From positions 35,900,001-35,964,000 of the forward strand of contig CM059432.1 of assembly GCA_030390025.1 (NCBI GenBank): DNA of 64,000 nucleotides, given 5' to 3'. This DNA is from Squalus acanthias. Its lineage: Eukaryota. Positions 114 through 23,899 of the stretch are shown piece after piece. The notes under the pieces were generated by a model, which saw only the letters and a program-made list of their open reading frames with translations, made no database searches and was not told the origin of the DNA. Position 1 is the first letter of the stretch; each line of letters opens with the position of its first letter. The position numbers and the translations under genes are program-made.

Positions 114-119
114 GTTCAG

Positions 120-640
120 TCCCGCCTCCATCAGCTTCTGTCCAACCAGTGGGATTTTCCCCTGATTGACCTTGTTAAGCCCGCCCGGCGGGTTTAGCAG
201 GCCAATTAGGGCGAAGCCAGTTGCAGAGCACGTTAGCGTATGACATGTCATCTGTCAAGAATTTTTGAAAGAAGAAATGTCATCGTTTGACAGCTCTGTG
301 AAGCTGTCAAACACTGACATTCTGTGTAGTTTGATGAGTCCTTGTGTTCAGGACTCATCAAACCTTTCTACTTTGCAGAAATCAGATGACTGTTGGATCG
401 GAGGATGCAGCAGCCAGTCTGTGATCTCTACAATGGAGATGTCGGGGACTCTGGCTCCACAGCGGCTGATGGCTGCAGGAAGAAACAAAGGTAAGTTAAC
501 ATTTTCTAACACTTTACACTCACCTCACATACTTACCACTCCACACTTGCACCCATCACTCACCTCTACAGCGCACTTTCAGACCCCTCCAACCCCCGCA
601 GACCCACTGCTCACCTCCTACACCCTTTTGATGGGCTAGT
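120..640 (-). mobile_element. Fragment of the PIF/Harbinger-like non-autonomous element also at 9682-10517 and 52514-53291
   Basis: Shares internal blocks in reverse orientation (TGATTGACCTTGTTAAGCCCGCCC, TTTGACAGCTCTGTGAAGCTGTCAAACACTGAC) with the other two copies. Confidence 0.6.
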
Positions 641-898
641 CCTAAATCACACGGTGCCTTTATCCACTGGGTCACTGGGGGAAGGCCAAATGGTAAGTTA
701 TCTTCAAACCCTGCTCACCCCCCCCTAATGCACATTGAGAAGTGTCTGAAAGGTGCTGAAATTCTTTGAATATTTGATGGAACTGGTTCATGGTGGTCTT
801 ATAGAGGATGTTACAGATCTAGAAAGGGCAAAAGTTACTATTCGACTGTAAGCGGCATCACAGTCGAACTCAATCCTGTCCTCATCCAATATTCACAC

Positions 899-3425
899 GT
901 GTATAACATATTTAGAAAAGATAGAGAGGGGGGGAAAAGGGGAGGTGAAGTAGCTGTACGTATTAGGGATAACATAATGGCAGTAGAAAAAAGTGACGCA
1001 GCTATCAGCAAGACAAAAATAGAATTCATATGGATAGAGATAAAAGATAATAAAGGATCAATCACACTAATAGGTGTAGTCTACAGACCACCTAATAGTG
1101 GAAGGGAGGTGGAGGAAGAACCATACAGACAAATTAGAGAAATTAGTAAAAAACATAGAATAATAATCATGGGGGATTTCAACTACCCCGATATTAATTG
1201 GACAGAAGAGGTCGGTAAAGGGGATAAGGGAATGGAGCTGCTACAATGTCTACAGGATTCTTTTCTAACCCAATATGTAAAAAGCTCAACAAGGGAGGAT
1301 TCACTATCAGATATAGTTATGGGGAATGAGCCAGAGCAGATAAGAGAAGTAAAAGTAGGGGAACATATAGGCAATAGTGACCATAGTATAATACGCTTTA
1401 AGATGATAATGGAGAAGGGCATAAGAATGACAAAAACCAAGTTAATAGATTGGAGAAAAGCTTATTTTGAGGGTCTGAGAATAGAACTTGGGAAGATAAA
1501 ATCGGCAACAATATTGGCAAACAATGTTGTAGAACGACAATGGGAAATATTTAAAACGGTGTTCAACAGAGTGCAGGAAAAATATATTCTGCTAAAAGGA
1601 AAGAACAAACTAAACACTAATGAGACTCCATGGATGAATAAAGACATAAGGAAACAATTGAGGGTAAGGAAAGGGGCATACATTAAGTACATAGACAGCA
1701 GAGGAGTGCATGATAAGAAAGAATACGAAGGGATTAGGAGAGAAGTCAAAAAAACAATTAGGAAGGCAAAGAGGAACTATGAAATTAAATTATCAAGGAA
1801 CATAAACAAAATAGTAAAATATTTTACAGGCACATCAATAAAAAAGGAAGGTTGCGATGGGAATAGGGCCATTAAGGGATGGACAGGACAATACCACAGG
1901 TAATGATAGGGAGCTGGCAGAAATATTAAATCATTATTTCGCTTTGGTATTTACCAGGGAGATAGAACAGGTGGACATGACATTGGATGATGAGATGAGT
2001 AATGAGATAAGTGCATTTAAAATAAAAAAAGGGGATATATTAAATAAACTAATCAAACTCAAAGAGAATAAAAATCCCTGGTTCGGATGGATTGCATCCA
2101 ACCATTTTAAAAGAATCTAGGGAAGAGATAGCAGAGGCATTACTACACATAGTTAATAATTCATTAGAAAAAGGTGTAGTGCCAGAGGACTGGTGGATAG
2201 CTAACATAATACCCATATTTAAGAAGGGGGATAGAACATGTCTAGGGAATTATAGACCAGTCAGCTTAACATTGGTGGTAGGAAAAATAATGGAATCCCT
2301 ACTAAAGGAAAAAATAGAAGAACATCTAGAAACGAAAAGTATAATAATGAATAGTCAGCATGGATTTCAAAAGGGAAAATCTTGCTTGACCAGCCTTATT
2401 GAATTTTTTGAAGAGGTAACAGAGAGAGTAGACAATGGTAATGCAGTAGATGTAATTTATCTAGATTTTCAAAAGGCCTTCAATAAGGTATCCCATAATA
2501 GACTAATGAATAAGGACAGAGAATGTGGAGTCAGGGGACAAGTAGTAGAATGGATTGCTAGCTGGTTTCATGACAAAAAGCAGAGAGTTGCGTTAAAGGG
2601 TAGCTATTCACAGTGGCAGAAGGTGGGTAGTGGTGTTCCACGAGGATCAGTGCCGGGACCACTGTTGTTCACAATTTACATTAACGATTTAGACTTTGGA
2701 ATCAAAACACAATTTCTAAATTTGCGGATGATACCAAATTGGGGGGGGATAATCAATACTGAGGAGGACTGCAACAAATTACAGGAGGACATTAATAAAC
2801 TTGCAGAATGGGCAAATAATTGGCAAATGAAGTTCAACACAGACAAATATGAGGTATTACATTTTGGTAGGAAGAATAGGGAGGTCACTTATCACTTGGA
2901 GGGTGCGAGTCTAGGTGGGGTAGAGGAACAAAGGGATCTCGGAGTACAAATACGCAAATCACTAAAAGTTGCGCCACAGGTTAGCAAGGCCATTAAAAAT
3001 GCCAACCAAGCACTAGGGTTTATTTCTAGAGGGATAGAATTGAAAAATAGGGAGATTATGCTAAACCTGTATCGAACCTTGGTTAGACCACACTTAGAGT
3101 ACTGCGTGCAGTTCTGGTTGCCATGTTATAAAAAGGATATGGAGGCACTGGAGAGGGTGCAGAGAAGATTTACAAGGGTGATACCAGAAATGCGAGGGTA
3201 TACATAACAGGAAAGGATGAACAGTCTGGGTCTCTTTTCTCTTGAAAAAAGAAGGCTGAGGGGTGGCCTAATAGAGGTCTATAAAATTATGAAAGGTTTT
3301 GATATAGTGGATACAGAGAGTGTGTTTCCACTTGTGGGGAGGAGCATAACTAGAGGCCATCAATATAAGATAATCACCAAGAAATCCAATAGGGGATTCA
3401 GAAGAAACTTCTTTACCCAAAGAGT
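899..3425 (+). mobile_element. CR1-clade LINE ORF2 (APE endonuclease + reverse transcriptase), frameshifted and truncated
   Basis: Motifs GVVYRPPNS, IMGDFNYPDINW, SDHSII (APE) and [44 protein letters not shown] (RT), split over ORFs 899-1903, 1857-2120, 2092-3207 and 3217-3456. Confidence 0.93.
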
Positions 3426-4099
3426 GACCTTGGGGATGTGCAGACTCTTGATGTGATGCTTATCACGTATGGGACGGTCTAGTTGGACCTATTTTTTTTT
3501 CCTGTTTACGTTTTCGTGTGCCCATATGTTGAAAGACCTTGAATTGGGAGACTGATGGCTAAGCTGCCTGGGTAATATCAAGAGACAGTGAAATTCTCAA
3601 CGAGAAAGAAAGAAAGCACATCCGAAAGAGTTTGACACCAATAAATTAATTTTGAAGTGTAGCCACTGTTGTTTTACAGGCAAACACAGCAGCCAATTTG
3701 TGTACAGCAAGCTAATGAGATCATGACCAGTTCATGTTTTTTTGGTGGTTTTGGATAAAAGAGGAATGTCAGCCAGAACACTGGGATAACTTCCCTGCAC
3801 TTCTTCAAAAAGATTTCATTGGGTCTTCTACACCCACTTGAACAGGCAGACAGGGGCCGCAGTTCAACGTCTCACTTGAAAGACGGCACCTCCATCAGTG
3901 CAGCGGGACGGCAAGCCTGGATTATGTGCTCAAGTCCTGGAGTGCGGTTTGAAAACCACAACCTTCTGACTCAGAGGCGAGAGTCAAACCGAGTGGAGCT
4001 TTCACAATATGACACATAATTCACAGTAACAGAGGTCTGTTGTATACACTGCTGCCTGCCAGCTGTTTGATTAACCTTTGACCTGTTTGCTTTGCTCAC

Positions 4100-4226
4100 C
4101 AGACCCTGTGCCACCACTCAGACTGTGCAACAGTATGGCCCCACTGTAACTGTCCCGGCGTTCCACCTCTTTCCATGGTGCAGCGAAGCAAACTCTTGTC
4201 ATCCTCTGTCCGCAGTCCATGATGCC
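4100..4226 (-). pseudogene. tubz1: Zeta-tubulin-like gene, coding exon 4 (127 nt), frameshifted as assembled
   Basis: Acceptor tttacag|GG and donor TCTG|gtgagc. The incoming phase-1 frame reads (G)HHGLRTEDDKSLLRCTM; the tubulin-homologous KEVERRDSYSGAILLHSLSGGTGS(G) is in a different frame from ~4172. Confidence 0.8.
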
Positions 4227-4559
4227 CTGTAAATAGATTGTGGCTTGTTAGGCCTCACTGGATCAATATGAATCCTTTGCATACAGTGTAATCCTGTTAG
4301 AATGATCAATATAACCAACTGATCAAAAAAAGTAGCAATCTCTGAATTGTATTGCTGATCAGATGTCTGAACAGTGCTGCTTGGCACTCGCCAGCACTGA
4401 TTAAATAGCTGCTCAGCCTCTTGTTACCCAGCTGAAGCTCAGCCTGTCCTCACCCAAGTGCTGCTCCACCTCTCCACCCTATGCACTATTTAGCTTACAC
4501 TGTTCAGTGGACATAACCTACAAGGGCTTGGGTGTGCATAACTAAGACTGCCTAATTTC

Positions 4560-5190
4560 ACCTCCATAACAACGCCCGTCTCCGCCCTTGCCTCAGCTCA
4601 TCCACTGCTGAAACCCTCATCCATACCTTTGTTACCTCGAGACTTGACTATTCCAACGCGCTCCTGACTGGCCTCCCACATTCTACCCTACGTAAACTTG
4701 AGGTCATCCAAAACTCAGCTGTCCGTATCCTAACTCGCACCAAGTCCCGTTCACCCATCACCCCTGTGCTCGCTGACCTACATTGGCTCCCGGTTAAGCA
4801 ACGCCTCGATTTCAAAATTCTCATCCTTGTTTTCAAATCCCTCCATGGCCTCGCCCCTCCCTATCACTGTAATCTCCTCCAGTCCCACAACCACCCCCCC
4901 CACCCCCCGAGATATCCGAGCTTCTCTAATTCTGCCCTCGAGCATCCCTGATTATAATCGCTCAACCATTGGTGGCCGTGCCTTCTGTTGCCTAGGCCCT
5001 GAGCTCTGGAATTCCCAGCCTAAACCTCTCCTCTTTTAAGATGCTCCTTAAAACCTACGTCTTTGACCAAGCTTTTGGTTCTCCTTATGTGGCTCAGTGT
5101 CAAATTTTTTGTCGTTTAATACTCCTGTGAAGCGCTTGGGGCATTTTATGTTAAAGGCGCTATATAAATACAAGTTGTTGCTGTTGTTGT
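4560..5190 (+). mobile_element. L2-clade LINE 3' fragment
   Basis: Encodes SRLDYSNALL...LHWLPVKQRLDFKILILVFKSLHGLAP; L2-type tail AAAGGCGCTATATAAATACAAGTTGTTG. Confidence 0.85.
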
Positions 5191-5397
5191 TGACTGGATG
5201 GGAAATCTAGCTCCCCTAGTGGCTTACTGGGTAAAAGGATCTTCCAGTGTGTTGAGCCCAAAGGTGGCAGGTTTGATCCCGTCTGGGCTGAGTTACTGTA
5301 ATTGATTTCACCTTAGATAGTAATTGGCCTGGGTTAGGAAGAGAGAGGGGGTAAAAATCAGCCAGGGATTCTCATTGTTGATCACTATACGGTGATC

Positions 5398-6600
5398 GGC
5401 TCCCGACCTCATTACAGCCTTGGTCCAAACATGGACAAAGGAGCTGAATTCCAGAGGTGAGGTGAGAGTGACTGCCCTTGACATCAAGGCAGCATTTGAC
5501 CGAGTCTGGCATCAAGGAGCCCTAGTAAAACTGAAGTCAATGGGAATCAGGGGGAAAACACTCCATTGGCTGGAGTCATACCTAGCACAAAGAAAGATGG
5601 TTGTGGTGATTGAAGGTCAATCATCACAGCCCCAGGACATTGCTGCAGGAGTTCCTCAGGGCAGTGTCCTAGGCCCAACCATCTTCAGCTGCTTCATCAA
5701 TGACCTTCCCTCCAACATTAGGTCAGAAATGGGGATATTCGCTGATGACTGCACAGTGTTCAGCGCCATTCACAACCATGCAACAACGCCTGGACAACGT
5801 TCAGGCTTGGGCTGATAAGTGGCAGGTAACATTCGTGCCACACAAGTGTCAGGCAATGACTATCTCCAACAAGCGAGAGTCTAACCACCTCCCCTTGACA
5901 TTCAACGGCATTACCATCGCTGAATCCCCCACTATCAACATCCTGGGGGTCACCATTGACCAGAAACTTAACTGGATCAGCCACATAAATACTGTGGCAA
6001 CAAGAGCAGGTCAGAGGCTAGGTATTCTGCGGCGAGTGTCTCACCTCCTGACTCCCCAAAGCCTTTCCACCATCTACAAGGCACAAGTTAGGAGTGTGAT
6101 GGAATACTCTCCACTTGCCTGGATGAGTGCAGCTCCAACAACACTCAAGAAGCTCAACACCATCCAGGACAAAGCAGCCCGCTTAATTGGCACCCCATCC
6201 ACCACCTTAAACATTCACTCCCTCCACCACCGGCGTACCGTGGCTGCAGTGTGTACCATCTACAAGATGCACTGCAGCAACTCGCCAAGGCTTCTTCGGC
6301 AGCACCTCCCAAACCCGCGACGTCTTCCATCTAGAAGGACGGGGCAGCAGGCGCATGGGAACACCACCACCTCCAAGTTCCCCTCCAAGTCACACACCAT
6401 CCTGACTTAGAAGTATATCACCGATCCTTCATCGTTGCTGGGTCAAAATCCTGGAACTCGCTACCTAAGAGCACTGTGGGAGTACCATCACCACATGGAC
6501 TGCAGCGGTTCAAGAAAGCGGCTCACCACCACCATCTCAAGGGCAATTAGGGATGGGCAATAAATGCTGGCCTTGCCAGTGACGCCCACATCCCATAAAA
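5398..6600 (+). mobile_element. Second LINE family (CR1/L2 superclade), RT 3' half plus 3' UTR
   Basis: [43 protein letters not shown]; tail GGGCAATAAATGCTGGCCTTGCCAGTGACGCCCACATCCC, whose short 3' ends recur throughout the window. Confidence 0.88.
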
Positions 6601-8152
6601 ACGAATATCCAGTGACCCCTGCTGAAGTGTATACATAGGCCTAGAAATTCATCTCGGGCGGTGGTGCAAAACGGGCAGTATCGGATCGGCCGCCCGTTAT
6701 ACACAGCGCTTGATAATCAGTTCCATTGACTGAAGTGGTCGTCTTTTGTGAGGAACTTTGTCAAATCCCTTTGGATGCCTAAGTATACCACAGTCCACTT
6801 GGACACAGTACTCAGGGTTCAGTCTGACCAGAGCCCTGTACAGTTTGATCATACGTCTTGTGACCTATAGCCTACTGTTTTGGCGATGGAGTCCAACATC
6901 CTGTTAGCTTTGTTGATTGTTACTCTGCATTGGTTAGGACATGTTGAGCATTCAGTCTGCTAAGACTCCTGGATCTTTTTCATCTTCATCCTTAGCTATT
7001 TCAACACCGTTCATGAAGTGAGGGTGCGTTGCCCATTTTCCTTCCTATGTGAAGTATTTCACGCTTGTCTGCTCTGCCCACTTACATATTTTGGCCAACT
7101 CATTCTGCATTTTCTGATCTACCTCCTCAAAATTATCTACCAATTCCAGTTTGGTACCATCTGTAAATTTGACCAATTTACATAAGTTTTTCAATCCAAG
7201 TTGTTGATGTAAATTAGAAACAGTAGTGATCACAACGCTGATCCTTGGGGCGCCCTGCCCAGTAATCCTTCCCTCCCCGCCGGGCTAAACTCCTCTATTC
7301 CCCGTTGCTTTCTACCCTTAAGCCAGTTTCTTATCCCCAAATCTCATAGCTTTCATCTTTGTGCGGAACTTTGTCAAATCCCTTTGGAAGCCTAAGTACA
7401 CCACAGTCCACTTGGGTACAGTGGTGTAGAATAATGGTGATGTAACCAGAGGTTGTGAGTTCAAATCCCAAAGCTCGTCATTTGTGGGCTGGCACCAAGA
7501 AAAATGACCATGGAAGCTGCTGGATTCAACTAAAAACCCAACTGGTTCACTAATGACCTTCAGGGAAGAGAACCTGCTAGCTCTACCTGGTCTGGCCTAC
7601 ACTATGTGGTTGACTCTTAATGTGTTTTGAAATTATTTTTGGAACAGCCTCCCAGAAAAGTCTTTAACGGCTTTATCAATGATCTCCTTCAGGGATGCTT
7701 CCAATCGCAGGAAAGAGCAAAAGTCATGAAACCTATACAAAAGACCATGGCCTGCAGGACAGGACACCAAGGTTTGAAAAAAGAAGATATGAGATACAAC
7801 AACAACAACTTGCATTTATATGCAAGTAGCAGTTAGGTGACACCAAACTTGGTTTTAAGAGCTGTAGATTGTAGGAGGAAGAAAAGGCTGAGTGAGTTGA
7901 AGAACGCCATGGTTTTGAGATCCTGAGAAAGAATGAGTTATAGTCGGAGACAGTGCAATGAGACTTGGTTTCAACATAGTGAGGATGTAGAAAGGAGAAA
8001 GAGTGTGTCGGACATGGTGTTTGGAACTTAGGAGGAACAAGAGGAGAAAAGTGTGGAGAATCACCAATCATAACAGTATTGATAAAATAGAGAGATAAGA
8101 AAGGCTGAGGTCTTTTAGCTTTAAAAGCCTAAATTACTCCTCAGAATCTCAC

Positions 8153-8214
8153 CAAAAGCCCAGTTGTTGCCTCTTCCTCTCAAGCCAACTAAAATGTTTG
8201 AATCTCTGAATGAC
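8153..8214 (-). CDS. tubz1: Zeta-tubulin-like gene, coding exon 3 (62 nt)
   Basis: cgttaaag|G TCA TTC...TGG GCT TTT G|gtgaga encodes (G)SFRDSNILVGLRGRGNNWAF(G), the tubulin GNNWA loop. Phase 2 in, phase 1 out. Confidence 0.9.
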
Positions 8215-9681
8215 CTTTAACGAAATACAAAGGTTATGTCAGTTTAATCGCAATCAGTGCAGCTGGCCAAGTTCAACAGCGGTCAGTCTCAAAGGGCAGT
8301 ACAATCTCCACCACTTACACCGTCCACACTTATCACGGGCAGCCGCCTATATCAGGAAAATGGCGCTAACCATTCGCCATCACCATAGGCGTCAATTACA
8401 CAGGCACAGCTTATAACGTATTAAGCACACCGGCTATTTCGGGCAGTCCAAACAACTATTCACACCTCGTTAAAATGCGATTACCTTAGTGATGAGTCTG
8501 CCATTAAGACCTTTCATGACTTCTGCGACTTGGATCAGGCAGCCTCGCCATTTCCAGTGAGTTATAGGATACAGTAGCCACATGGTCCTGATACTGGACT
8601 AGCAACCAAAAGGTCATGAGTTCAAATCCCACTGTGTTAAGCTGTGAATTTTGAATTCAAATAAATTTGGTCATTTGTGGACTGGTGCCAGAAAAAAATT
8701 GACAAAGACAACTGCCAGGAGGGAACGTACCACCTCTACATGTGACTCCAGTCCAACATCATATTAATGCCCTCATAGAGTCATAGAGTTATACAGCACA
8801 GAAAGAGGCCCTTCGGCCCATCGTGTCTGCGCCGGCCGTCAAGCCCTGTCTATTCTAATCCCATTTTCCAGCACTTGGTCTGTAGCCTTGTATGCTATGG
8901 CGTTTCAAGTGCTCATCGAAATGCTTCTTGAATGTTGTGAGGGTTCCTGCCTCTACCACCCTTTCAGGCAGTGAGTTCCAGATTCCAACCACCCTCTGGG
9001 TGAAAAAGTTTTCCCTCAAATCCCCTCTAAACCTCCTGCCCCTTACCTTGAAACTATGTCCCCTGGTTATTGACCCCTCCACTAAGGGGAAAAGTTCCCT
9101 CAAGACAACTTGGGATGGGCAAATGTGGCCTTGCCAGTGTTGCCCACATCCCAAGAATACATTTTTTTTTAAAGTTGTCAGGCTATTCTGGCTGTGGAGT
9201 TTTACCACAGCTGGGCCTAGTTCTGTGCTCACCCAACATCCACACTGTCCTGCGAAGAGTCACTGGGATCTCGGAGTGGAAACACTGGCTTGAGGCCATG
9301 CAGTGGTGGCCCTGGCTCAATCGGTAGCACTGTAGTCTCTTGAGGAAGAAGGTCATGGGTTCTAGCCCAACCTCAAGACTTGAGCGGATAATCTAGGCTG
9401 ACACTTCAATGCAGTACTGAGGGAGTGCTGCACTGTCAGATGCCCCTTCTGCCCACAGGTGAACATAAAAGATATTTAAAGAAGAGCAGGGGAGTTCTAT
9501 TGGTGTTCTGGTCAACATTTATCCCTCAGCCAACACCTAAAATACAGATTATCTGGTCATTTATCTGGTCATACAAGGCTATGGACCAAGTGCTGGAAAA
9601 TGGGATTAGAATAGCTAGGGCTTGATGGCTGGCGCAGACACGATGGGCCGAAGGGCCTCTTTCTGTGCTGTATAACTCTAT

Positions 9682-10517
9682 GGGCTCGAATTTCCAAGCC
9701 CTGTGGAGGCGGGCTTGGAGGCGGGAAAATTGCAGATTCGGGGGGTACGTACCCATCCCGCCCCCAACCCGCCTCCATGTCAATGTCCCAGGAGGCGGTT
9801 ACCCGACCTGTGCTGGGAGCCGCCTCCCCGAGGCGGGAAGGGGATTAGTGCTAATTAACTGCCTGTTAACAGGTAGTTAACAGGCAGTTTTTTGGCTAAT
9901 CCCTATTTTTAGCCCTGAAGTGTGGGCTGCCTGACGGCTCCAAACCACGCCAAGTTAGCGAGGTGGACCGTGGGTCTGCAGGGTTTGGAGGGGTCGAGAT
10001 GTTCGGTGTACAGGTGAGTGATGGGTGCATGAGTGCAGAGGTAGGTGTGTTTGGTGTGTGTAAAGTGTTTTAATAAGTTTTACTTACCTTTACTTTCTCC
10101 TCCAGGCTTCCTCCCTTCAGGTCTCGGGAGTCCCTCAGCTCACCGGCACAGAAAGCAGAATGGCCGCTGAGCTGTCAAAAGCTGCAGCCTCTGTTTTCTG
10201 GTCTGGAGAGCTCTCTAACTGAGTCTGAGTAGAAGGACTCAAGTTAGAAGACAGATTGTCAGTGTTTGACAGCTTCACAGAGCTGTCAAACGCTGATATT
10301 TCATCTGTCAAAAGCTCTTGACAGATGAAATGTCAATCGCTGACGTCACCAGTATCCAGGTGTCCCTTAATTGGCCTGCTGAGCCCGCTGGGCGGGCTTA
10401 ACAAGGTCAATCAAGGGAAAGTAGCGTGGGTTGGCCACAAATCGATGGAGGCGGAACGACAACCCAAAAAGTGGGAGTCCCGCCTCCATCACGTCCCCAT
10501 TGACAAAATCCAGCCCA
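9682..10517 (+). mobile_element. PIF/Harbinger-like non-autonomous DNA transposon (~830 bp)
   Basis: Ends GGGCTCGAATTT... and ...AAAATCCAGCCC form imperfect TIRs. Colinear with the 52514-53291 copy; no ORF. Confidence 0.6.
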
Positions 10518-10862
10518 GAGACTCTATTGCTGTTTGTGGAACCTTGCTGTGTTCAAATTGGCTGCTGTGTTTCCTACATTACAACAGTGGCTACACTTGT
10601 ATTTCATTAACTGTGAAGCACTTTGGGAGGTTCTGAGGACATGAAAGGTGCTATATAAATGCAGGTTTTCTGTTTCATTGAGATCAACCAACAGCACAGG
10701 CTGGGATCAAACCTTGAACCTTCAGGGTCTGTAGGTGGGCCATTCTGATGCTAAGACATGCTAAAACCATTGGCTGTGGTAATAATTTGTCAATCATACT
10801 TAATCCACAAGAGGAACTTATGTGGAAAGCTCAAATATTAAGTTAAGGAGATTGTTGCATAC

Positions 10863-10958
10863 CCGGTCTTCACTTCCTGGAGCAATCTCCTCACTACTTT
10901 GGGCTCACTGTCCACACACAGGGTGCTCAGCTTCCCACTGGCTGTGTAAAATGGATAC
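10863..10958 (-). CDS. tubz1: Zeta-tubulin-like gene, coding exon 2 (96 nt)
   Basis: ttgttgcag|G TAT CCA...AAG ACC GG|gtatgc encodes (R)YPFYTASGKLSTLCVDSEPKVVRRLLQEVKT(G), with the tubulin VDxEPKV motif. Phase 2/2. Confidence 0.9.
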
Positions 10959-11004
10959 CTGCAACAAGGGATCCCATCACATCTCCAGCACATAAACACA
11001 GTGA

Positions 11005-12015
11005 TAGAATCATAGAATGGTTACAGCACGGAAGAAGGTCATTCGGCCTGTTGAGCCCGTGCCGGCTCTCTGCAAGAGCACTTCAGCTAGTCTCACTCCC
11101 CCGCGCTTTCCCCGTAGCCCTGCAAATATCTTTCCTTTAGATACTTATCCAACTCCCTTTTGAAAGCAGTGATTGAAAATTTCTTTCCTTTAGATAATTA
11201 TCCAACTCCCTTTTGAAAGCCGTGATTGAGTCTGCCTCCACCACCCTTTCAGGCAGTGCATTCCAGATCCTAACCACTCGCTGCGTTAAAAAGTTTATTC
11301 TTATGTCGCCTTTGGTTCTTTTGCCAATCACCTTAAATCTGTGTCCTCTGGTTCTCGACCCTTCTGCCAATGGGAACAGTTTCTCTCTATCTACTCTGTC
11401 CAGACCCCTCATGATTTTGAACACCTCTATCAAATCTCCTCTCAATTTTCTCTGCTCCAAGGAGAACAACCCCAGCTTCTCTAGTCTATCAACGTAACTA
11501 AAGTCCCTCATTCTGGGAATCATTCTCATAAATCTTTTCTGCACCCTCTCTAAAGCCTTTGCATCCTTCCTAAAGTGCGATGCCCAGAATTGGACACAAT
11601 ACTCCAGTTGGGGCCGAACCAGTGTTTTATACAGGTTCATCATAATTTTCACACTTTGTACTCTATACCTCTATTCATGAAGCCCAGAATCCCGTAAGCC
11701 TTTTTAACTGCTTTCTCAACCTGCCCTGCCACCTTCAACAATTTGTTCAGACATAGCCCCAGGTCTCTCTGTTCGTGCACCCCCTTCAGGATTGTACCAT
11801 TTAATTTATATGTCCTCTCCTCATTCTTTCTACCAAAATGTATCACTTCACACTTTTCTGCGTTAAATTTCATCTGCCACGTGTTCGCCCATTTCACCAG
11901 CCTGTCTATGTCTTCCTGAAGTCTATCACTCTCCTCCTCACTGTTCACTATACTTCCAAGTTTTGTGTCATCTGCAAATTTTGAAATTGTGCCCTGTATA
12001 CCCACGTCCAAGTCA
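11005..12015 (-). mobile_element. CR1-clade LINE 3' end (RT C-terminus + tail)
   Basis: SKFADDTKLG, LVRPQLEYCVQFW, RTRGHRFK, VVRIWNALP; ATTCTATG-type tail. Confidence 0.9.
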
Positions 12016-13442
12016 TGTATGGTACTTGCATATTGTTAACTGAACACTAGATGGCCCCCTGAGGGGAGTAAGCACATTGTAGCAATGACACTCCAAGATC
12101 TCTCTTGTATTGCTTTTGTTGGGAAGTCAAAGGAAATAAAAATCAGGAGAGGTGTAAATCGGGCTGCCAATTCGCTATCGCCCGTTTTACACTATTGCAC
12201 AATGTCAAAATCTACCCAAACACGCCGCCATATATTGTACACACTGGGAAATAAACCATTCTGTGGTCTGGCAGAGAACAGATCCCGACCTCAAGCTGCT
12301 CCTGCAGTAATTTCATTCACTCCCTGCCAGCACATGCTGGATCTCGGAGCTGGGATTAAAAAACCCCTTGGATCTGCGGTGGAAAATGAACAAAGGACCT
12401 GCAGAGTTAACGGCACAGCTATCCTGTGGTCTACTCTGGGCGGCTTGCCATTTCAGTGCACTTACTGGAGTCATAACTGTCGTACTATCAATCACAGTGC
12501 TCGAACTACTGCTCCCTTCACTTCCAAGGCAGGAGGAAATGCATCAGAGAAAGCAGCAAGATCCTAGTCAACAAAGTAAAGAGCAGATTACATTCAGGAT
12601 TTGAATTTTTCAACTTCCTGTCCTTAGAGAAAGAAAAGAAAGAAAGAACTTACGTTTCTATAGCACCGTTCACAACCTCAGGACATCACAAAGCGCTTCA
12701 CAACCAATGAAGTACTTTTGAAGTGCAGTCACTATTGTAAACTGGGGAAACACAGCAGCCAATTTGCGCACTGCAAGGTCCCACAAACAGCAATGTGGTA
12801 CTGGCCAGAGACTCTGTTTAAGTGATGTTGGTTGCGAGCTAAATATTGCCCAGGACAGCAGGAGAACTCCCCTGCTCTCCTTCAAAATAGTGCTGTGCCA
12901 TCTTTTAAGTCCACCTGAGAGGGCAGACCCGAAACATGGCACCTCCGATAGTGCAGCACTCCCTCAGTACTGCACTGAAATACCAGTCGAGATTATGTGC
13001 TCAAGTCTCCGAATTGGGGCTTAGAACCCACAATCTTCTGACTCAAAGGTGAGAGTTCTACCACTGACACCAGAGCAACATACAAAACCGAGGGCAGGAA
13101 AATTCAGCTGGTCCATTGAGCCTGTCCTACTGGGTTGCAGTACAATCCCATGAGCACCAGAGGCCTTCGGGTACATCAATCAACTGGCCACTCTTCAAGA
13201 GTGAGCCTCGACCAGAGGTTCCCAAACTTTAATTATTGCCTACGCCCTTCCAGATCTACCAGCTGCCCGCGTACCCCTACCAGTATACAGGTTTAATATT
13301 TTAACCCCTTTAATGCCCAAGCATTGTACAAAATGTACAAATTATAATACACATAACAACTTAGTGTACAGTGATTAGAAGTGAGGGTTCTGTACGTCAT
13401 CATCTCTGTGTATCTGTGTTCTCATTGGCATATCGTGAAGTC

Positions 13443-13899
13443 AGCCGTGGCTCACTGGGTAGCACTCTCACCTCGGAGTCGGAAGGTCATGGGTTCAAGT
13501 CCCACTCCAATGACTTGAGCTCAAAAATCTAGGCTGACACTCCAGTGCAGTGCTGAGGGAGTGCTGCACTGTGGGAGGTGCCGTCTTTCGGATGAGACAT
13601 TAAACCGAGGCCCCATCTGCTCTCTCAGGTGGACATAAAAGATCCCATGGCAGTATTCGAAGAAGAGCAGGGGAGTTTTCCCCGGTGTCCTGGCCAATAT
13701 TTATCCCTCAATCAACATAACTAAAAAAAAACAGATTATCCAGTCATTATTACATTGCTGTTTGTGGGAGCTTGCTGTGCGCAAATTGGCTGCCATGTTT
13801 CCTACATTACAACAGTGACTACACTTCAAAAGTACTTCATTGGCTGTAAAGCGCTTTGGGTGTCCTGAAAGGCACTATATAAATGTAAGTCTTTCTTTC
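13443..13899 (+). mobile_element. SacSINE1/DeuSINE-like tRNA-derived SINE with L2-type tail (near full length)
   Basis: Head AGCCGTGGCTCACTGGGTAGC...GGGTTCAAGTCCC, central GCACTGTGGGAGGTGCCGTCTTTCGGATGAGAC...AAAAGATCCCATGGC, tail CTATATAAATGTAAG. Further copies near 3600-4000(-), 9306-9570 with 10525-10670(+), 12630-13070(-), 17094-17490(+), 19535-19960(+), 21700-22040(-), 26185-26520(-), 40100-40400(+), 41081-41430(+), 45415-45730(-) and 56600-56970(-). Confidence 0.75.
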
Positions 13900-15285
13900 A
13901 AATTAACTACTTTATATAACAAATTCCCACAGAGTTTTAAAGCTTTGTCTGAGTAGCCTATTGTAAAAATGCAATAATATCCTATTGGTACCTCAACTAA
14001 CATCATCTAACTCAGCACAGGAAACAATCCTGCGACCTTCTGGTCTGAATGACTCAGTAACACATGGGATGGTGCCATTGAGCCATCAACAGAACTCTTC
14101 CCCCTGCCCCTACATTATGAGTGCTTTACTTCTTTAGTTACTGAATGGTGAGAGATGTTGGTTAAGTAAATATACACACATGAAGTACATCTACCTGTAT
14201 TCTGTGAGTGTATGTGAGCCGTTTTCGACTAAAATTAGTGCATGTGGCCAAAACAGTGTCGCCGTAGTCACAACCTGTGGCTAGCCAGCAATTTCTATTG
14301 GACAACACTAGTCTAGATCAATCGCCTGGGTGAGTCACAAGCCCCTAGGCCTTCGAGAGTGCCTTCACTAGCCTTACTATCTAGCTAAACATTCAATAAC
14401 AAAAAACCTTGGCCTGTCAATTATTTTAAGCTACTGGAATTATTCTTATGACTCCACAAGTTCTTTCAGAAGGTACTGAAGTAACTAAAGATGAAATTAA
14501 AAGAGACTCAAAACTCAACATGTCCAATCAATGTAGAGTAGCAATAAACAAAGCCAATAGGATGTTGAACTCCATAGTCAAACAGTACACTACAAGTCAG
14601 AGGAGGTAAGGAGCAAACCATACAGTGCTCTGGTCAGACCGCACCTTGAGCACTGTGTCCAGCTCTGGTCACCGAGACACGAGGGAGACATTCAACTGCT
14701 GGAGGCAGTGAAGGAAGAGCCATGAGGCCGGTCCCCAATGTCAGGGGGTATGAGTTATGAGGAAAGACTGGAGAGACTTGGGCTTTCATTTAAATGCAAA
14801 TTAGATAGATTTCTTTCAGAAAATAATACTTTGGGATACAGTATATGAGTAATTTGAGACATGATATGTGGTAAGTGGAGCGAGCTTAGGGAGGATTAGG
14901 TCTCTTTGGACCTATGTTTCCCAAAGCTTTCCACTATTGGGGTTTTCCTCGCGTCATGTCTGGGTCTGTTGTAGACTAATTGATAGAGATTAATTGCCAT
15001 GATTAAGCAACAACTCCATTATCACTGTATCATGTGACCACCAGGATGGTAGAAGGAGAACCAGATAGACCTTGGTCTTTTTTCGTCCGGCAATTCCTAT
15101 GTTCAGCGTGGGAAGGAGGCGTCTAAGAGCTGGTCTTATAGAGGTATATAAGAAAGTGAAGGGAATGGAAAAGGTAAATCCAGAATATTACTTTAGGTTA
15201 AACTGTGAAAGTAGAACAAGGTGACACACGTTCAAACTAGTAAAAGGAGAAATTAGGACTGATATCAGGATATTTTTCACACAGA

Positions 15286-15471
15286 GAGGGTAATTTGAAT
15301 TTTGGGCGATCGTGTACGATGGGCAATATAGAATTGGTGACACATTATACGACCCACCTGATTTTACCTTCCACTAACTTCAATGGAAAGGGAAATCGGG
15401 CGCATTGCGTAATGGTCGGCTAATTCGATATCGCCTGTTGTACACCATCGCCCAAAGTTAAAATTACCCCC
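15286..15471. mobile_element. ~185-bp MITE with ~30-bp terminal inverted repeats, inserted in an old CR1
   Basis: Left GGGTAATTTGAATTTTGGGCGATCGTGTAC is the near reverse complement of right GTACACCATCGCCCAAAGTTAAAATTACCC. CR1 sequence resumes on both sides; related fragments at ~6640, ~12150 and ~21540. Confidence 0.7.
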
Positions 15472-18270
15472 ACAGAGTGATGAACACTTGGAATGGACTC
15501 CCAGGAATAACAGTGGAGGAAAAACTTCAGGAATCATTTAAAAAATTGGTGCTGCAATGAGGAGAGGATCTCTCTGGATGGGCCAAATGGCCTTCCTCAT
15601 CTGTAATTATCTTGTGATCTATCTCCTCGAACAGAGAAAAAAACAAAAAGTTTGTGAACCTAAAAACCTAAATCTGTAATCTCTAAAAAAAAAACCAATT
15701 ACATACACAGCTCCCCTCCTTCTCATCTCCCTACAAGCTGTGCGAGCCAGCTAAACATCTACCCGTCTTTCTATGAAGATTTCAGTTTGTTCGATGCACT
15801 GGGAGGACTGTTTTGGTGTATTTCTTTGTAGAGCACTTGACCTGTTGCCAAGGATCATTAGAAATTGAAAACTGACAGCCTCAGTTCAAAAAAAAACCAG
15901 GCTGTCATATCATTAATGGGCCAATGATGAAGTCTATATCGATTTGCAGATTGTGTTGGACTCTAACTCCCAAGCCTGTTGCCACGGGGACTACAACAAC
16001 AAACTTCGCAACATCCGTAACAAAATAGACTGAGGCTGCAGGTGGCTTTTTAAAATCTAAAGTATTTAGTCAAATTTAAAGGATAGTTACCATACATGAA
16101 GAAGGAGGGGATAGTGGGATATGGGAGCAGGGTGGGAAGAGATTAGATTGGGAAGACGCTCATGTGGAGTGTAAACACTGGCACAGACCAGTTGGGCAGA
16201 ATGGTCTGCTTCTATGCTGTAGAGTCTATGTAAGACCAAGTTAAGACAGCACTGCTTCATATTTGGAATCGTACAATTTTACAACACAGAAGGCAGCCAT
16301 TCGGCCCATCTTGCCTGTGCCAGCTCTCTGAAAGAGCTCTCCACTTAGTCCAATCCCCCTGTCCTTTCTCCACAGCCTTTTACATAAGAACATAAGAATT
16401 AGGAGCAGGTGTAGGCCATACAGCCCCTCGAGCCTCCTTTTCCATTCTGCCTGTCTTTTCGAAACGTCAAGTACCCTGGAATATTTAGTTCCCAACCTTG
16501 GTCACCTTGCAACCACGTCTCTGTAATGGCTGTTAAATCAAAGCCAGTTATCTCTATTTGTGCCACTAATTCGTCTCTCTTGTTACGAGAGCTTCGTGTA
16601 TTCAGATAAAGCGCCTTTAAGTTTAACTTTTTACCATTATTCCCTGCTTTCACCTTATTCGCTTACATTTTTGTATTTCAAATATTTACCCACTTCCCTT
16701 TTAAAAGCGATTATGGATTCTGTTCCCAACGCTGCTTCTGGTTGAGCATTCCATATCCTAGCAATCCTCACTCTGCGTTAAAAGAACATTCTCCTAACCT
16801 CTCCCTTCGTTCTTTTGGTAATGATCTTAAATTGACTCCCCTGTCGTTACTGACTCACTGACCATTTTTCACATACTCTCCCCCATTGAACTCCATACAT
16901 ATGGGGATGCAGCATTCATGAGCATTGACTCTGTTTATTCCTGGTGTGATAGGGTGTAGACATTCCCATTTTAGAAAACATGGCCATGATGGCTCATCAT
17001 GATGTACCCTTCAAGAGCAATGATACTCAAACATTCTTTGTCAATTGTAGAATAAGCCATCACTTGGGGAAACAGCTTACAATGTACAACTGTCAGCCCT
17101 GGCTCAGTGGTAGCGCTCTCACCTCTGAGTCAGAAAGTTGTGGGTTCAAGCCCGACTCCAGAGACTGGCACTTCAGTACAGTACTGGAGGTGTCGTCTTT
17201 CAGCTGAGACGTTAAGCCGAGATCCTGTCTGCCCTCTCAGGTGGACATAAAAGGATCCCATGTCTCTATTCGAAGAAGAGCAGCGTAATACTCCCGGTGT
17301 CCTAGCCAACATTTCTCCCTCAACAACATCATTAAAACAGATTATCTGGTCATTAGCTTGTGGCTGTTTGTGGGAGCTTGCTGTGTGTAAATTGGCTGCT
17401 GTGTTTCCTACATAACAACAGTGACTAGACTTCAAAAGCAATGAACTGACTTTGAAGCACTGTGGGACATACCGAGCTGCTATATAAATGGGGGATGCAA
17501 AAGAGGCCAGAATTGGAAGAACGCAGATTTCTCAGAGGATTGTACGGCTGGAGGAGGTTACAGAGATAGGGAGGGGCAAGGCCATGGCGGGTTGGAACAT
17601 GAGGATGAGAATTTTAAAATCGAGGAGTTGCTGAACCAATGTAGGTCAGCGAGCGCAAGGGTGATGGATGAACGGCACTTGGTGCGATTTAGGATACGGC
17701 AGCAGAGTTTTGGACGAGCTCAAATTTACTGAGGGTGGAAGAAGCCTGTTCTTTTTAGGTTTTACCCTTCTCCCCACGCCACAGTGACATATAAAGGGTG
17801 ATATCATGGGCAATCTTAAGTAAATTGTTTCGAGTCAATCCCGGTACCACTCTCATGGAATTGTAGAGACATACAGCACAGAAGGAGCCCATTCGGCCCA
17901 TCTTGCCTGTGTCAACTCTTTGAAAGAGCTATCCAATTAGTCCCACATCCCTGCTTTTTCCCCATAACCCTGCAATTCTTTCCTTTTCAAGTATAGATCC
18001 AATTCCCTTTTGAAAGTTACTATTGAATCTGCTTCAATTACCTTGTCAGGCAGTGCATTCCAGATCCTAACAACTCGCTACGTAAAAAAAATTCTCCTGA
18101 TTTCCGCCACCCCCCCCTCCCCCATTTCCATAGAATATATCTTGTGATCATTGCTCTATTTTAACAAATTTAGCAAGTGGCCAGTACTCACTGGTGTCTC
18201 TCGCATCCTTGCCACTTTAGTGACATCTCTCTTCCACATAATGGCACTACTTCCTTTATATTGCACTCAG

Positions 18271-19265
18271 TGTGTCTCACCTCCTGACTCCCCAAAGCCT
18301 TTCCACCATCTACAAGGCACAAGTAAGGAGTGTGATGGAATACTCTCCACTTGCCTGGATGACTGCAGCTCCAACAACACTCAAGAGGGCAACACGGTGG
18401 CATAGTGGTTAGCACTGGTGCCTCACAGCGCCAGAGACCCGGGTTCGAATCTGACCTCGGGTGACTGTCTGTGTGGAGTTTGCACATTCTCCCCGTGTCT
18501 GCGTGGGTTTCCTCCGGGTGCTCCGGTTTCCTCCCACAGTCCAAAAATGTGTGGGTTAGGTTGATTTGGCTATGATAAATTGACCCTTAGTGTTAGGGGG
18601 GATTAAATATGTGGGGTTATGGGGATAGGATGGGATATGTTAGGGGGAATTAAATACGTGGGGTTACGGGGGTAGGGTAGGATATGTGTACTGTGGGGAT
18701 TAAAGCAGGGACAGGGTACTGGATTTGGATGATCAGCCATGATCGTATTGAATGGCGGAGCAGGCTCGATGGGCCGAATGGCCTACTCCTGCTCCTAGAT
18801 TCTATGTTTCTATGTTAAGAGGCTCGACACCATCCAGGACAAAGCAGCCCGCTTGATTGGCATCCCATCCACCACCTTAAACATTCACTCCCTCCACCAC
18901 CAGCGTACCGTGGCTGCAGTGTGTACCATCTACAAGATGCACTGCAGCAACTCGCAGAGGCTTCTTCGGCAGCACGTCCCAAACCTGTGACCTCTACCAC
19001 CTAGAGGGACAAGGGCAGCAGGTGCATGGGAACACCACCACCTTCAAGTCACACACCATTCTGACTTGGAAGTATATCACCGTTCCTTCATCGTCGCTGG
19101 GTCAAAATCCTGGAACTCCCTCCCCAACAGCACTGTGGGAGTACCTTTACCACACGGACTGCAGCGGTTCAAGAAGGCGGCTCACCACCACCTTTCAAGG
19201 GCAATTAGAGATGGGTAATAAATGCTGGCCTTACCAGCGATGCCCACATCCCATGAACGAATAAA
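18271..19265 (+). mobile_element. Second LINE family 3' end, interrupted by an HE1-like SINE
   Basis: Colinear with 6035-6600 on both sides of the SINE insertion. Confidence 0.85.
18387..18816 (+). mobile_element. Full-length HE1-like V-SINE with CR1-type tail
   Basis: tRNA-like head GGGCAACACGGTGGCATAGTGG, V-domain, tail ...GGCCTACTCCTGCTCCTAGATTCTATGTTTCTATGTT; short AAGA duplication at both junctions. Confidence 0.82.
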
Positions 19266-21242
19266 ACATTTTTTTTTTGAAGTCCAATAAATTTTCTGCG
19301 TTCGGCTTATATTTTGGACATAATCTCAGGATTTCTCATGCAACATTTTAAGGACATCTATGCTGAGCTTTCACTTGGAAATGTACTGTTAATAAAGTGA
19401 CTGCCCCAGAACGCTGCACCGATCCTTTAGAGGCGACCTTCGGCCTCCTGCTGATGTTACCGCCGGAAAGAGCGCATTGCATGGGAGCTTCTGCGCTGCG
19501 CTCATTTAAATCAGCAGGCAACACCAAATACCGGTGCCACGGCTCACTGGAAGAACTCTTGCCTCTGAGTCAGAAGGTTGTAGGTTCAAGCCCCATTCCA
19601 GGGACCTGAGCACATAATCTAGGCTGATACTCTAGTGCAGTACTGAAGGAGTGCTGCACTGTCGGAGATTCCGTCTAGATGAGACATTAAACCTCTGAGG
19701 TGGACGTAAAAGATCGCATGGCACTATTCGAAATTGAGCAGGTGTCCTGGCCAACACTCAACCCTCAACAAACATCACTAAAACAGATTAAGTGGTCATG
19801 TATCTCATTGCTATTTGTGGGACCTTGCTGTGTGCAAATTGTCTGCTGCGTTTCCTCCATTACACAGTGACTACACTTCAAAAGTATTTAATTGGCTGTA
19901 AAGCACTTTGGGATCTCCTGAGGTCATGAAAGGCTCTATATAAATGCAAGTTCTTTCCTTTAAAGCTGCACCGGGCCGTGACTTTACTCTCTAGACCAGC
20001 GGATCATCCACTACCAAGGTTGCTCCTCGGCAGGTAATAAGTTCAGGAGTGATGGGGAATGGGCCCCCCCAGATTCCCTGTTCTTTCCTGCTGTGAAATG
20101 CCTTCTCTCAACTCCCAGATCACAAATCTTCACACGGAAGCCACCAGTCTGGTAACTGAGGATCATTCCACATTGTATATCCTTCCTTTTGAAGGACTGA
20201 ACAGAGAATTAATAACAGAGAATTAATAAGTCAGTCGGAAAAAATAAATCCCCTAACCATTGAAATGTCTGCTCCGTGCCAGACTTTGTTTCCCCAAGGA
20301 CTCCTGCTCTATTTTCAGGTTGGATTTGTTCCCAATGGAGCAAACAAGGAACTCCCCACATTCAATCCCAGTGGTTGGCTGCTTGGTGCACAGTTGACTC
20401 TCTACAACCAAATGGCAAGGCCTTGGTGGTGCCAATGGCCAGTCTGATTAGAATGAAAAGTCAATGCAGCTTCCTCTGGCTGTTTCTTTCCCCAATTTTT
20501 GTCCTCTCCTCTCGAAAGGAGATCCTAGCTGGGTACGATACCACATGAAATTTCCCATTCTTCATGGGTGAGGCTAGACAATGAGTGCCGACAGGCTAGT
20601 TGACGATGCGGGGCATCATAGCTGTGCCTGATCCTCTCTTCACCCAGCCAATAAACAGCAAAGGTCAATGGAGAACCATTAGGAGTGGGGTCCCTGGCTA
20701 ATTTCCCTCCACCCTAGCACAGGGCTAAATACAAGGCATACATAGAAAATAGTAGGTGGGGAGAAGACAGGCAGACACACAGAGTCAGAGTCAATTGTAC
20801 AGCCCCAGCTGCTGCTCTGGTGAGATCGGCTAACTCAGCACAGGTCGAAGTTCGAACCTGAAACCTTTTGATCTATGCAGCTTAGTGCTGCACCAGGTGG
20901 TACCTTTACTCATTAGCTCAACAGGGTACCAAATGGCAAGGCCTTGGTGGGGCCACTCCTACCTGCTCCAATCCCAATGAACAGTCTGATTAGAATGAAA
21001 AGTCAATGCAACATCGGAACATAGGAACAAGAGTTGGCCATTCTGCCCCTTGAGCCTGCGCCACCATTCGATTAGCCAATTAGATCATCGCTGTTCTGCA
21101 CCTCAACTCCATTTGCCCACCCTTTCTCCATATCTTTGATTCCTTGATACCCTTGCCCAGCAAAAAACTATTGATCTCAGTCTTGCAAGCTCTAATTGTC
21201 CCAGCACTCAGAGCCTTTTCAGCAACAGATGAGATCACTCAC

Positions 21243-21346
21243 CTGTCCACAGCGCAATTTGGAGCCTTTTCATTGGTAACCAGTTTCCAACATTCCTGTC
21301 CCACTTGATTGCCACACTGCCCGACCTGCAGCCAAATGGTGGACAT
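21243..21346 (-). CDS. tubz1: Zeta-tubulin-like gene, first coding exon (exon 21243-21348, ATG at 21346)
   Basis: ccttttcctctag|GA ATG TCC...GTG GAC AG|gtgagt encodes MSTIWLQVGQCGNQVGQECWKLVTNEKAPNCAVD(R), with the tubulin QVGQCGNQ motif. The strong acceptor implies an upstream non-coding exon. Confidence 0.92.
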
Positions 21347-23899
21347 TCCTAGAGGAAAAGGAGAAGATGCTGGTCATTTCCCACACTTTTTAGGGCGAAT
21401 CCCAGTGAACAACGTACGTAGGAAATAGTACGGAATAGGGGAGGAGAGAAACAGATACAAAAGCCTCGATGTTAACCTATCCCGCTCGGTGGCAAAGGGA
21501 CAAGTTCAAGACAGACGTCTGCTTTGCAACCTGACTGATTTTACTCTCCATTGACTTCAAAATTGGGCAGGGTCTAAAATGGGTGTCCGACTCAAACCCA
21601 CCCCATTCCCACTGGGCGGGTTACGTTAAAATTGAGAGTAGACAATAAGAGACAGACAGTGAGTGAAAGAGACAGAGAGACATACACACACAGACAGATA
21701 ACCAGATCTGTTTTAGTGATGTTGGTTTAGGGATCAATATTGGCCATGACACTGAGGAGAACTTCCCTGCTCTTCTTTGTATAGTGGTCATGGGATAGCA
21801 GACAGGGCATTGGTTTAACATCTCATCTGAAGGATAGCACATCCAACAATGCAGCACTCTCTCAGTACTGCACTGAATTGTCAACCTGGATTATGTGCTT
21901 ATAATACTCCTGTGAAGCGCCTTGGGACGTTTTATTACATTAAAGGTGCTATATAAATACAAGTTGTTGTTGTTGTTTAGTCTCTGGAGTGAGGCTTGAA
22001 CCTATGACCTTCTGACTCAGAGGTCAGACTGCTACCACTGAACCTCGGGGGGGGGAAAGCACCATGAAAACCCAAATGTGTTCACTAATGCCCTTCAGGG
22101 AAGGGAACCTGCCACTCCTACTGCTCCAATCCCACACTACGTGGTTGACTCTTAATGGCCTCTGAAGTGGTCTAGCAGTCCACCACCTCCTTCTCAGGGC
22201 AGTAAATGCAATCTTCATACATTGCCCCTATCGGAAAACAAATTTAAAAAAGCTCAGGAGGTTACTAATAACGTACGTTAGACAGATTTCCCCCACCCCA
22301 TTATACTTGAGGACTTGGGGCAAAAAATGTCCCCTGGAAACTCTTTGTGATTTCTTTAATGTTGCAACCATCCACTACCACATCCATGAGAGCCTAGATG
22401 GTGAGTGTTGGTACCACAGTCAGAGAGAGGTTGTTCTTGTTGTATCTTATATGGAAAAAAGGCGGGTAAATGGAGTTGAGGTACAGAGAAGCCATGATCT
22501 AAGAAAATGGCAGAACAGGCTCGATGGGCTGAATAGCCTCCTCCTGTTCTTGGAAAACAGTGTGAAGCAGCAGAGGGATTCTCAGGCTGGTTAACAGTCT
22601 GACAGGCCACGACGTGAACACTGCTTCCTTGGCCATAACTATCTTTATACCAGACGATTGGGTGGTTAGGCCTTTATGGCGGGAGCATTTTACGGGCTCC
22701 CACAACCCATACGATGAAGGGGGGGCCAGCGACAGCCACCAGACATGAGTATCCCACTGAATGTCAACCCACTATTTAGAGCTGGAGCTCCAGTCGCCAG
22801 GACTGTCTGGGGTTCAATTTTTTTTTATTCGTTCCTGGGATGTGGGCGTCGCTAGCCAGGCCAGCATTTATTGCCCATCCCTAACTGCCCTTGAGAAGGT
22901 GGTGGTGAGCCGCCTTCTTGAACCGCTGCAGTCCGTGTGGTGAAGGTACTCCCACAGTGCTGTTATGGAGGGAGTTCCAGGATTTTGACCCAGCGACGAT
23001 GAAGGAACGGCGATATACTTCCAACTCAGGGTGGTGTGTGACTTGGAGGGGAACTTGGAATCCTGCACCTTCTGACTTAGAAGTGGGAAGGGTACCACTA
23101 AGCCAAGTATCACTCCCCCAGGTAGGTGAAGGGTACTAAGGCAGGAGAGTCAGTAACCAGAGGACTCAGATTTAAAATAATTGGCAAAAGAACCAGAGGG
23201 GCGATGAGGATAATTTGTTTTACGCAGAGTTGTTATAATCTGGAATGCACTGCCTTAAAGGACAGTGTAAAGCAGATTCCATAGCAATTTTCAAAAGGGA
23301 ACTGGATATATATTTGAAAAGGAAAATTTTTCAGGGCTGTGGGAAAAGAGCAGGAGAGTGGGACTAATTGGATAGCTCTTTCAAAGAGCCGGCACAGTCA
23401 TGATGGGTTGAGTGGCCTCCTTCTGTGCTGTAAAATTCTAGGATTCAACTGTGTCAAAGGTCTGGGGGAGTCTGAAAGCTGTTTAACTTTCTGCTGTCTC
23501 CAAAAACTCTGAACACACCAGCAATGCACGTGTTATCATACTGTACAGTGTTATACATTAATTCAATTGGTCACAGTCTGTTGCCTGGGTATTGTATCAG
23601 AGAGAAAAAAACTGAAAGTGCCTGGCGGTTAAGGAACGATTCATGAAATTGCCTCTCAATATCCCAATCTGCATCGCTCCAAATGGACAAAGTTCGTGTT
23701 GAACCCGATTCATTAAAAAAAAGTTGCAGGAAGAGTTTTAAAAAAATGATTTATAAGCCGAATTAACGATCCAAGATTCCTTTTGTTCCCCAAGTTATTG
23801 CCAAGTGTGTTTTTTGAGTCATGTCTGCTACCGATATTTTTTTAAATAGTTTCACCTTTGAGAAAAAAATCAGAACAAGAGTAATTCCAAAAACAAACA

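Follow-up and report, generated by a model that had tools for sequence, protein, structure and literature searches.

A zeta-tubulin locus of the shark Squalus acanthias, very probably a unitary pseudogene

We analyzed a 64-kb stretch of genomic DNA from Squalus acanthias (G000:C8:35900001-35964000, on contig CM059432.1; hereafter the window, with positions counted along the whole stretch), in which an earlier note had described a hidden zeta-tubulin-like gene on the minus strand. The exons of such a gene are present and belong to the zeta-tubulin family, but the gene itself is not a working one. The locus is marked as a pseudogene, rather than a working member of the family, by two deletions that shift the frame, the loss of a splice donor and a premature stop codon, and it is very probable that it represents the single zeta-tubulin (TUBZ1) orthologue of this genome, a unitary pseudogene that is unable to make tubulin.

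Direct reading of the minus strand and of its exon ends identified four short open stretches in the window carrying the N-terminal GTPase motifs of tubulin (Table 1). The first three exons are 104, 96 and 62 nt long and thus give phases of 2, 2 and 1; exon positions, GT/AG splice sites and phases all lie where the earlier note had placed them, as judged from the sequence, the exon lengths and tblastn. When a shark orthologue was compared by tblastn with 59 kb of the locus, exons 1-4 were recovered at E = 2.9e-15, 6.3e-14, 1.1e-07 and 1.3e-13, respectively, and the four-exon match is thus not due to chance. Exon 1 is 89% identical to the Heptranchias perlo protein named 'tubulin delta chain-like' (XP_067834996.1, P0136 in our set), exon 2 is 94% identical to residues 35-67 of P0136 and exon 3 is 90% identical to residues 68-88, while exon 4 produced two high-scoring segment pairs in different frames, corresponding to residues 74-106 and 110-134. 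The Pfam Tubulin domain (PF00091) was detected in exon 1 (E 7.8e-06, 26.7 bits) and in the second half of exon 4 (E 0.0011, 19.7 bits); both scores fall below the gathering score of 33 bits because the fragments comprise only 24-34 residues. Exon 1 was also matched by beta- and gamma-tubulins of the PDB. Together, the GQCGNQ N-terminus, GNNWA and GGTGSG read from these exons place the locus in the tubulin superfamily, and in the spliced peptide NNWA occupies residues 83-86, as had been reported.

Further tubulin exons of this strand were also expected by the earlier note beyond the left end of the window. By tblastn, no exon beyond residue 134 was found at positions 1-4098 of the window. A search of the 3.7-Gb assembly, followed by tblastn and direct reading of C8:35866001-35900000, recovered all six remaining coding exons, on the same strand and left of the window. 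The ancestral layout of ten coding exons is kept, over a span of ~52.7 kb (G000:C8:35868692-35921346, minus strand), and all ten align to the 425-residue shark isoform, including the 96-nt exon that is missing from the 393-residue isoform.

To what extent this gene has been damaged was read from its coding sequence, with conservation at each lesion scored against an alignment of 87 relatives. The ten exons total 1227 nt, compared to 1278 nt expected for 425 codons plus a stop, and the 51 missing nucleotides are made up of 11 in exon 4, 18 and 9 in exon 6, and 13 in exon 8. In exon 4, the first 17 codons are read in one frame and the last 24 codons (KEVERRD...GGTGSG) in another, so that the GGTGSG motif is out of frame with the start of the exon. 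All relatives carry TMESFRKEVE at this point, where the locus jumps from TM(E) to KEVE; codon counting gives a deletion of 11 nt, and the four columns lost are filled in 87 of 87 relatives, the R being invariant. The earlier note had written its peptide with a break at this place. A real frameshift inside exon 4 underlies that mark, which stands for neither a splice junction nor a gap in the reading.

The other lesions lie left of the window. At the end of exon 5, a boundary that follows from the phase of the exon 6 acceptor, the sequence reads CTAACT in place of the required GT donor, a G-to-C change. Exon 8 has lost 13 nt between ...IVHTH and TGNI, again shifting the frame; 86 of 87 relatives have residues in the four columns concerned. 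In exon 10, a TGG-to-TGA change introduces a premature stop (AYLH-TGA-YWKHG) at a position occupied by W in 85 of 87 relatives. In addition to these four, exon 6 has been shortened by 18 nt in frame, and the six columns that this deletion takes away are occupied in 85-86 of 87 relatives. When the spliced exons are translated, the first stop is reached at codon 137, following 105 tubulin-like and 31 out-of-frame residues and short of the GGTGSG motif. We also considered whether the two frameshifts (11 + 13 = 24 nt) might restore each other, but rejected this, as stop codons occur between them from codon 137 on. Thus, a complete tubulin open reading frame (ORF) of ~420 residues is interrupted here by two frameshifts, one nonsense codon and one CT donor. 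Any transcript of the locus would be non-coding and would probably be removed by nonsense-mediated decay.

Several observations weigh against the conclusion that this is a dead gene and the only zeta-tubulin of the genome. All of the lesions rest on one assembly, and the deletion sizes are deduced from protein alignments and exon-length arithmetic. Not every gap counts as damage, either: the 9-nt gap in exon 6 was rejected as a lesion, since it lies in an indel-variable region filled in only 50-68 of 87 relatives. Furthermore, there was no excess of protein change at the locus. Its terminal branch measured 0.065, compared to 0.074 for the working sister, and it departs from the consensus at 3 of 89 highly conserved columns, compared to 0-4 in eleven working orthologues. 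Neither measure shows signs of a long time of relaxed constraint on substitutions. Either the gene was inactivated late compared to the split from the Heptranchias lineage, or rates in sharks are too slow for the change to show. Finally, the assembly consists of 3882 contigs, and a second zeta copy might lie in an unassembled part.

The single assembly and the otherwise well-conserved coding sequence, with an end branch no longer than that of the sister, would also be in keeping with a gene that is intact in the animal and only appears broken through assembly or consensus errors. We regard this as quite improbable. The disabling lesions are four and independent, and they are of three kinds (the two frameshifting deletions, the changed donor and the nonsense codon), with the 18-nt deletion in addition, and the coding sequence that holds them all is 1.2 kb long. 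Consensus errors do not usually take the form of multi-base deletions and point changes of this sort. Moreover, the paralogous delta-tubulin gene of the same assembly shows neither stop nor gap over 399 aligned residues, and an assembly error striking one 1.2-kb coding sequence four times is therefore unlikely.

To the same small degree, the lesions could be real but confined to a null haplotype that segregates beside a working allele. A young allele of this type would fit the lack of excess amino-acid change, yet four or five lesions on one haplotype would imply a long time without selection, which would be hard to square with a common working allele. Slightly less probable still is that the broken locus continues to be transcribed and is kept as a non-coding gene or for a truncated product. 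The ten exons, 9 of 10 splice-site pairs and the ATG are still recognizable, and a product of 136 residues, ending in the 31 out-of-frame ones, is formally encodable; given what is established of tubulin structure, however, 105 tubulin-like residues that end before the GGTGSG loop would not form a nucleotide-binding tubulin domain. We infer instead that the species is fixed for these lesions, which are real, and that the locus is a zeta-tubulin pseudogene.

We then consider the family to which the locus belongs, as its nearest relatives carry a different name. A protein search with exon 1 gave three matches among four candidates, all of them shark proteins called 'tubulin delta chain-like', at 86-89% identity. 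When the full-length 425-residue shark protein was used as the query, sharks, coelacanth, lungfish, amphibians, reptiles, marsupials, ray-finned fishes and invertebrates were represented among the 120 relatives listed. Conversely, no placental mammal, bird, ray or skate was present among these 120 closest relatives, which extended down to 43% identity. Over its full length, the member from Xenopus tropicalis shares 58% identity with the shark protein; it falls into one 90%-identity cluster with NP_001082326.1, 'zeta tubulin L homeolog [Xenopus laevis]', and with a UniRef entry named 'Zeta tubulin'. Sharing a cluster with the curated Xenopus zeta indicates that 'delta chain-like' is an automatic public label for zeta-tubulin.

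Phylogeny gave the same answer. Two trees were built, a 114-row FastTree and a 34-row IQ-TREE (LG+C20+F+G4, quick search), in which the locus was represented by a read-through with X at each break. For delta, the references came from fishes, sharks and amphibians and bear the name 'tubulin delta chain' in their source records; the rows included neither eutherian TUBD1 nor eutherian TUBE1. In both trees, the locus was sister to the Heptranchias protein, within a shark clade that in turn lay within the clade holding Xenopus zeta. Support in the IQ-TREE analysis was 100 for the zeta-like clade, 97 for the delta-named clade and 99 for the two as sisters, and the two clades remained separate though the same species were present in both. 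Placing the locus with the delta clade was rejected by the approximately unbiased (AU) test, with a log-likelihood difference of 47.9 and p = 1.85e-07. By phylogeny, therefore, the locus falls within zeta-tubulin (TUBZ1) and outside delta-tubulin (TUBD1), and the tubulin-family tree proposed in the earlier note as a check of its peptide revealed no grouping with delta or epsilon. Among ten 50%-cluster representatives of other tubulin clades, none carried a delta or epsilon name, and the best 60 of 171 PDB matches comprised beta-, Asgard or bacterial tubulins, none of them a delta, epsilon or zeta chain.

The choice of zeta over delta had been argued originally from RGRGNNWA and a shortened N-domain, and this argument holds in the rows examined. 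All 10 zeta-like rows matching the pattern have GR-G[NK]NWA at residues 80-83, whereas in each of the 11 delta-named database proteins the motif is GS-GNNWA and lies no earlier than residue 95; the locus reads RGR-GNNWA, at residue 83. Zeta also differs from delta, its sister family with tubulin GTPase motifs in common, at the N-terminus itself, which ends in LQVGQCG in zeta and in QLGQCG in delta. Judged from motifs, clusters and trees, the locus is the shark counterpart of zeta-tubulin and not of delta- or epsilon-tubulin.

We also examined the remaining tubulin loci of the assembly. A delta-tubulin gene is located at C11:674510-715872 on the minus strand, and 62 residues of one of its exons match a protein named 'tubulin delta chain' at 100% identity. 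Seven exon alignments cover 399 of 448 residues of this gene with 0 stops and 0 gaps, a first-exon match covers residues 1-50, and the exons are 76-100% identical to a sawshark protein. The same search performed with this delta gene retrieved delta chains of sharks, rays, bony fishes and amphibians, and some of these species possess a 'delta chain-like' protein as well. Since a separate delta paralogue is present in the genome, a simple misnaming of one gene is ruled out. An epsilon-like multi-exon locus lies at C3454:1832636-1860873 and falls outside the delta + zeta, gamma and alpha/beta groups in the IQ-TREE analysis. The ESM Atlas described one of its exons as 'Tubulin/FtsZ family' only, and by its tree position this locus is a candidate epsilon-tubulin. 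That the zeta-like exons derive instead from a delta- or epsilon-tubulin has next to no probability left: although the closest proteins are publicly named 'tubulin delta chain-like', and delta and zeta always form a common group according to Findeisen et al. 2014 (PMC4202323), the genome has a separate delta gene, zeta and delta fall into clades of their own with the AU test against the union of the locus with delta, and the epsilon-like locus stands outside the delta + zeta group.

No second zeta-like locus was found when all 86 candidates from the assembly were scored; every match of at least 55% identity fell at C8:35868695-35921346. Long matches elsewhere reached at most 28% identity, and a few short single-exon matches at 35-46% belonged to other tubulin genes (the delta gene on C11 and the epsilon-like locus on C3454). 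Two further groups of matches were observed in this survey. At G000:C3410:1130754-2026515, more than 20 tubulin-like matches occur within ~0.9 Mb on both strands, at 26-31% identity to the zeta and delta queries, a pattern resembling tandemly arrayed members of one alpha- or beta-type family of tubulin genes or pseudogenes. Another tubulin-like cluster, of smaller size, lies at C3:78511126-78822819.

Compared to the known members of the family, the locus is most similar to the shark 'tubulin delta chain-like' proteins of Heptranchias, Chiloscyllium, Cetorhinus and Mustelus. It is 88% identical over 402-406 aligned columns to the protein of Heptranchias, a cow shark and its sister in both trees. 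Along with the sawshark match of the delta exons, this probably places the animal among the squalomorph sharks. These orthologues are predicted as full-length ORFs, in contrast to the locus, which is 51 nt shorter and carries the frameshifts, the stop and the lost donor. Xenopus zeta-tubulin (tubz1, NP_001082326.1, P0124) belongs to the same orthologous clade and shares its N-terminal layout (GR-GNNWA at residues 80-83); the gene of Xenopus is undamaged and has been the subject of experiments, whereas the shark locus is broken in at least four places.

Table 1. Coding exons and associated features of the Squalus acanthias zeta-tubulin locus. Window positions are counted from the first letter of the 64-kb stretch.
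Feature	Reference	Position	Strand	Length	Splice sites and phase	Remarks
Coding exon 1	window	21243..21346	-	104 nt		ATG at 21346-21344; 34 codons + 2 nt; GQCGNQ
Exon 1 donor	window	21242-21241	-		GT, reads GTGAGT	
Coding exon 2	window	10863..10958	-	96 nt	acceptor ..TTGCAG, donor GTATGC; phase 2 in, phase 2 out	VDSEP
Coding exon 3	window	8153..8214	-	62 nt	acceptor ..TTAAAG, donor GTGAGA; phase 1 out	RGRGNNWA
Coding exon 4	window	4100..4226	-	127 nt	acceptor ..TTACAG, donor GTGAGC	138 nt expected from relatives
Junction of 11-nt deletion	window	4169..4173	-			exact base not fixable owing to local sequence repetition
Exon 5	C8	35891490..35891349	-			tblastn and direct reading
Exon 6	C8	35890552..35890394	-			tblastn and direct reading
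Exon 7	C8	35887109..35887014	-	96 nt		tblastn and direct reading
Exon 8	C8	35885462..35885400	-			tblastn and direct reading
Exon 9	C8	35874315..35874174	-			tblastn and direct reading
Exon 10	C8	35868927..35868692	-			tblastn and direct reading

Some further features of the locus were noted. The 32 residues encoded by exon 7 are those that separate the predicted 425- and 393-residue isoforms of other sharks, and this exon looks like an alternatively skipped cassette exon that is still intact in the pseudogene. Directly 5' of the ATG, a polypyrimidine tract followed by AG (window 21347-21380, minus strand) resembles a splice acceptor, and the promoter, together with a non-coding 5' exon, is probably located further upstream of the ATG exon. 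Intron 4 contains a long interspersed nuclear element (LINE) in antisense orientation to the pseudogene, with two long open frames (window 770-3207, plus strand) that match an endonuclease (PF14529, E 3.4e-12) and a reverse transcriptase (PF00078, E 5.4e-27). Another reverse-transcriptase fragment is found at window 51405-52145 (plus strand).

To our knowledge, zeta, a protein of centrioles and cilia, is the least understood of the six tubulin families, and the only functional study of it has been carried out in multiciliated cells of Xenopus. The chief hint at its function is that it is patchily distributed. In the literature, zeta-, epsilon- and delta-tubulin are described as a co-conserved 'ZED' module (PMC11156431), in which epsilon is always present and either delta or zeta can be lost, but never both (PMC4741028). 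Xenopus zeta is summarized there as a basal-foot constituent in multiciliated cells that associates with TRiC/CCT in cycling cells (Turk et al. 2015, via PMC4741028 and PMC11156431). The Squalus genome would fit the ZED rule, judging by the loci we recovered: zeta is very probably dead, delta is uninterrupted in its exon alignments and an epsilon-like locus is present. The basal-foot role of zeta-tubulin would then be dispensable in this animal, or be covered by delta- and epsilon-tubulin.

The family, its distribution among vertebrates and its repeated loss are already known, and the working shark orthologues are already annotated, as 'tubulin delta chain-like'. According to PMC5653238 and PMC4202323, zeta is missing from humans and the other placental mammals, and that the family was lost repeatedly has been published by Findeisen et al. 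2014 (PMC4202323). The loss in placental mammals follows the same pattern as that seen here, with delta and epsilon kept (PMC4202323, PMC5653238). The shark remnant can still be recognized exon by exon, whereas Table 1 of Findeisen et al. 2014 (PMC4202323) has 0 pseudogenes among 49 zeta sequences, and in the literature searched no zeta-tubulin pseudogene was reported for any cartilaginous fish. Our result is thus a new instance of lineage-specific zeta loss, and an incremental finding, whose main use would be in comparisons between species, with the shark as a natural knock-out. It carries two warnings for annotation: zeta-tubulin is labeled 'tubulin delta chain-like' in public records, and motif spotting exon by exon can take a pseudogene for a hidden gene.

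Delta-tubulins of rays and skates (Mobula, Amblyraja and Narcine) are present in the same collection, in which no ray or skate zeta appeared among the 120 relatives listed. From these sequences, batoids (rays and skates) may lack zeta-tubulin too. Zeta might then have been lost more than once in cartilaginous fishes, the locus described here being a recent, still readable loss in a squalomorph-like lineage, a proposal that we make tentatively and rate as rather doubtful. If it is true, such species would be natural knock-outs beside relatives with a working gene, in which the role of zeta at the basal foot of the vertebrate cilium could be probed. In its own right, the Squalus locus would add one more independent loss that obeys the delta-or-zeta rule, with close species with and without the gene as a comparative system.

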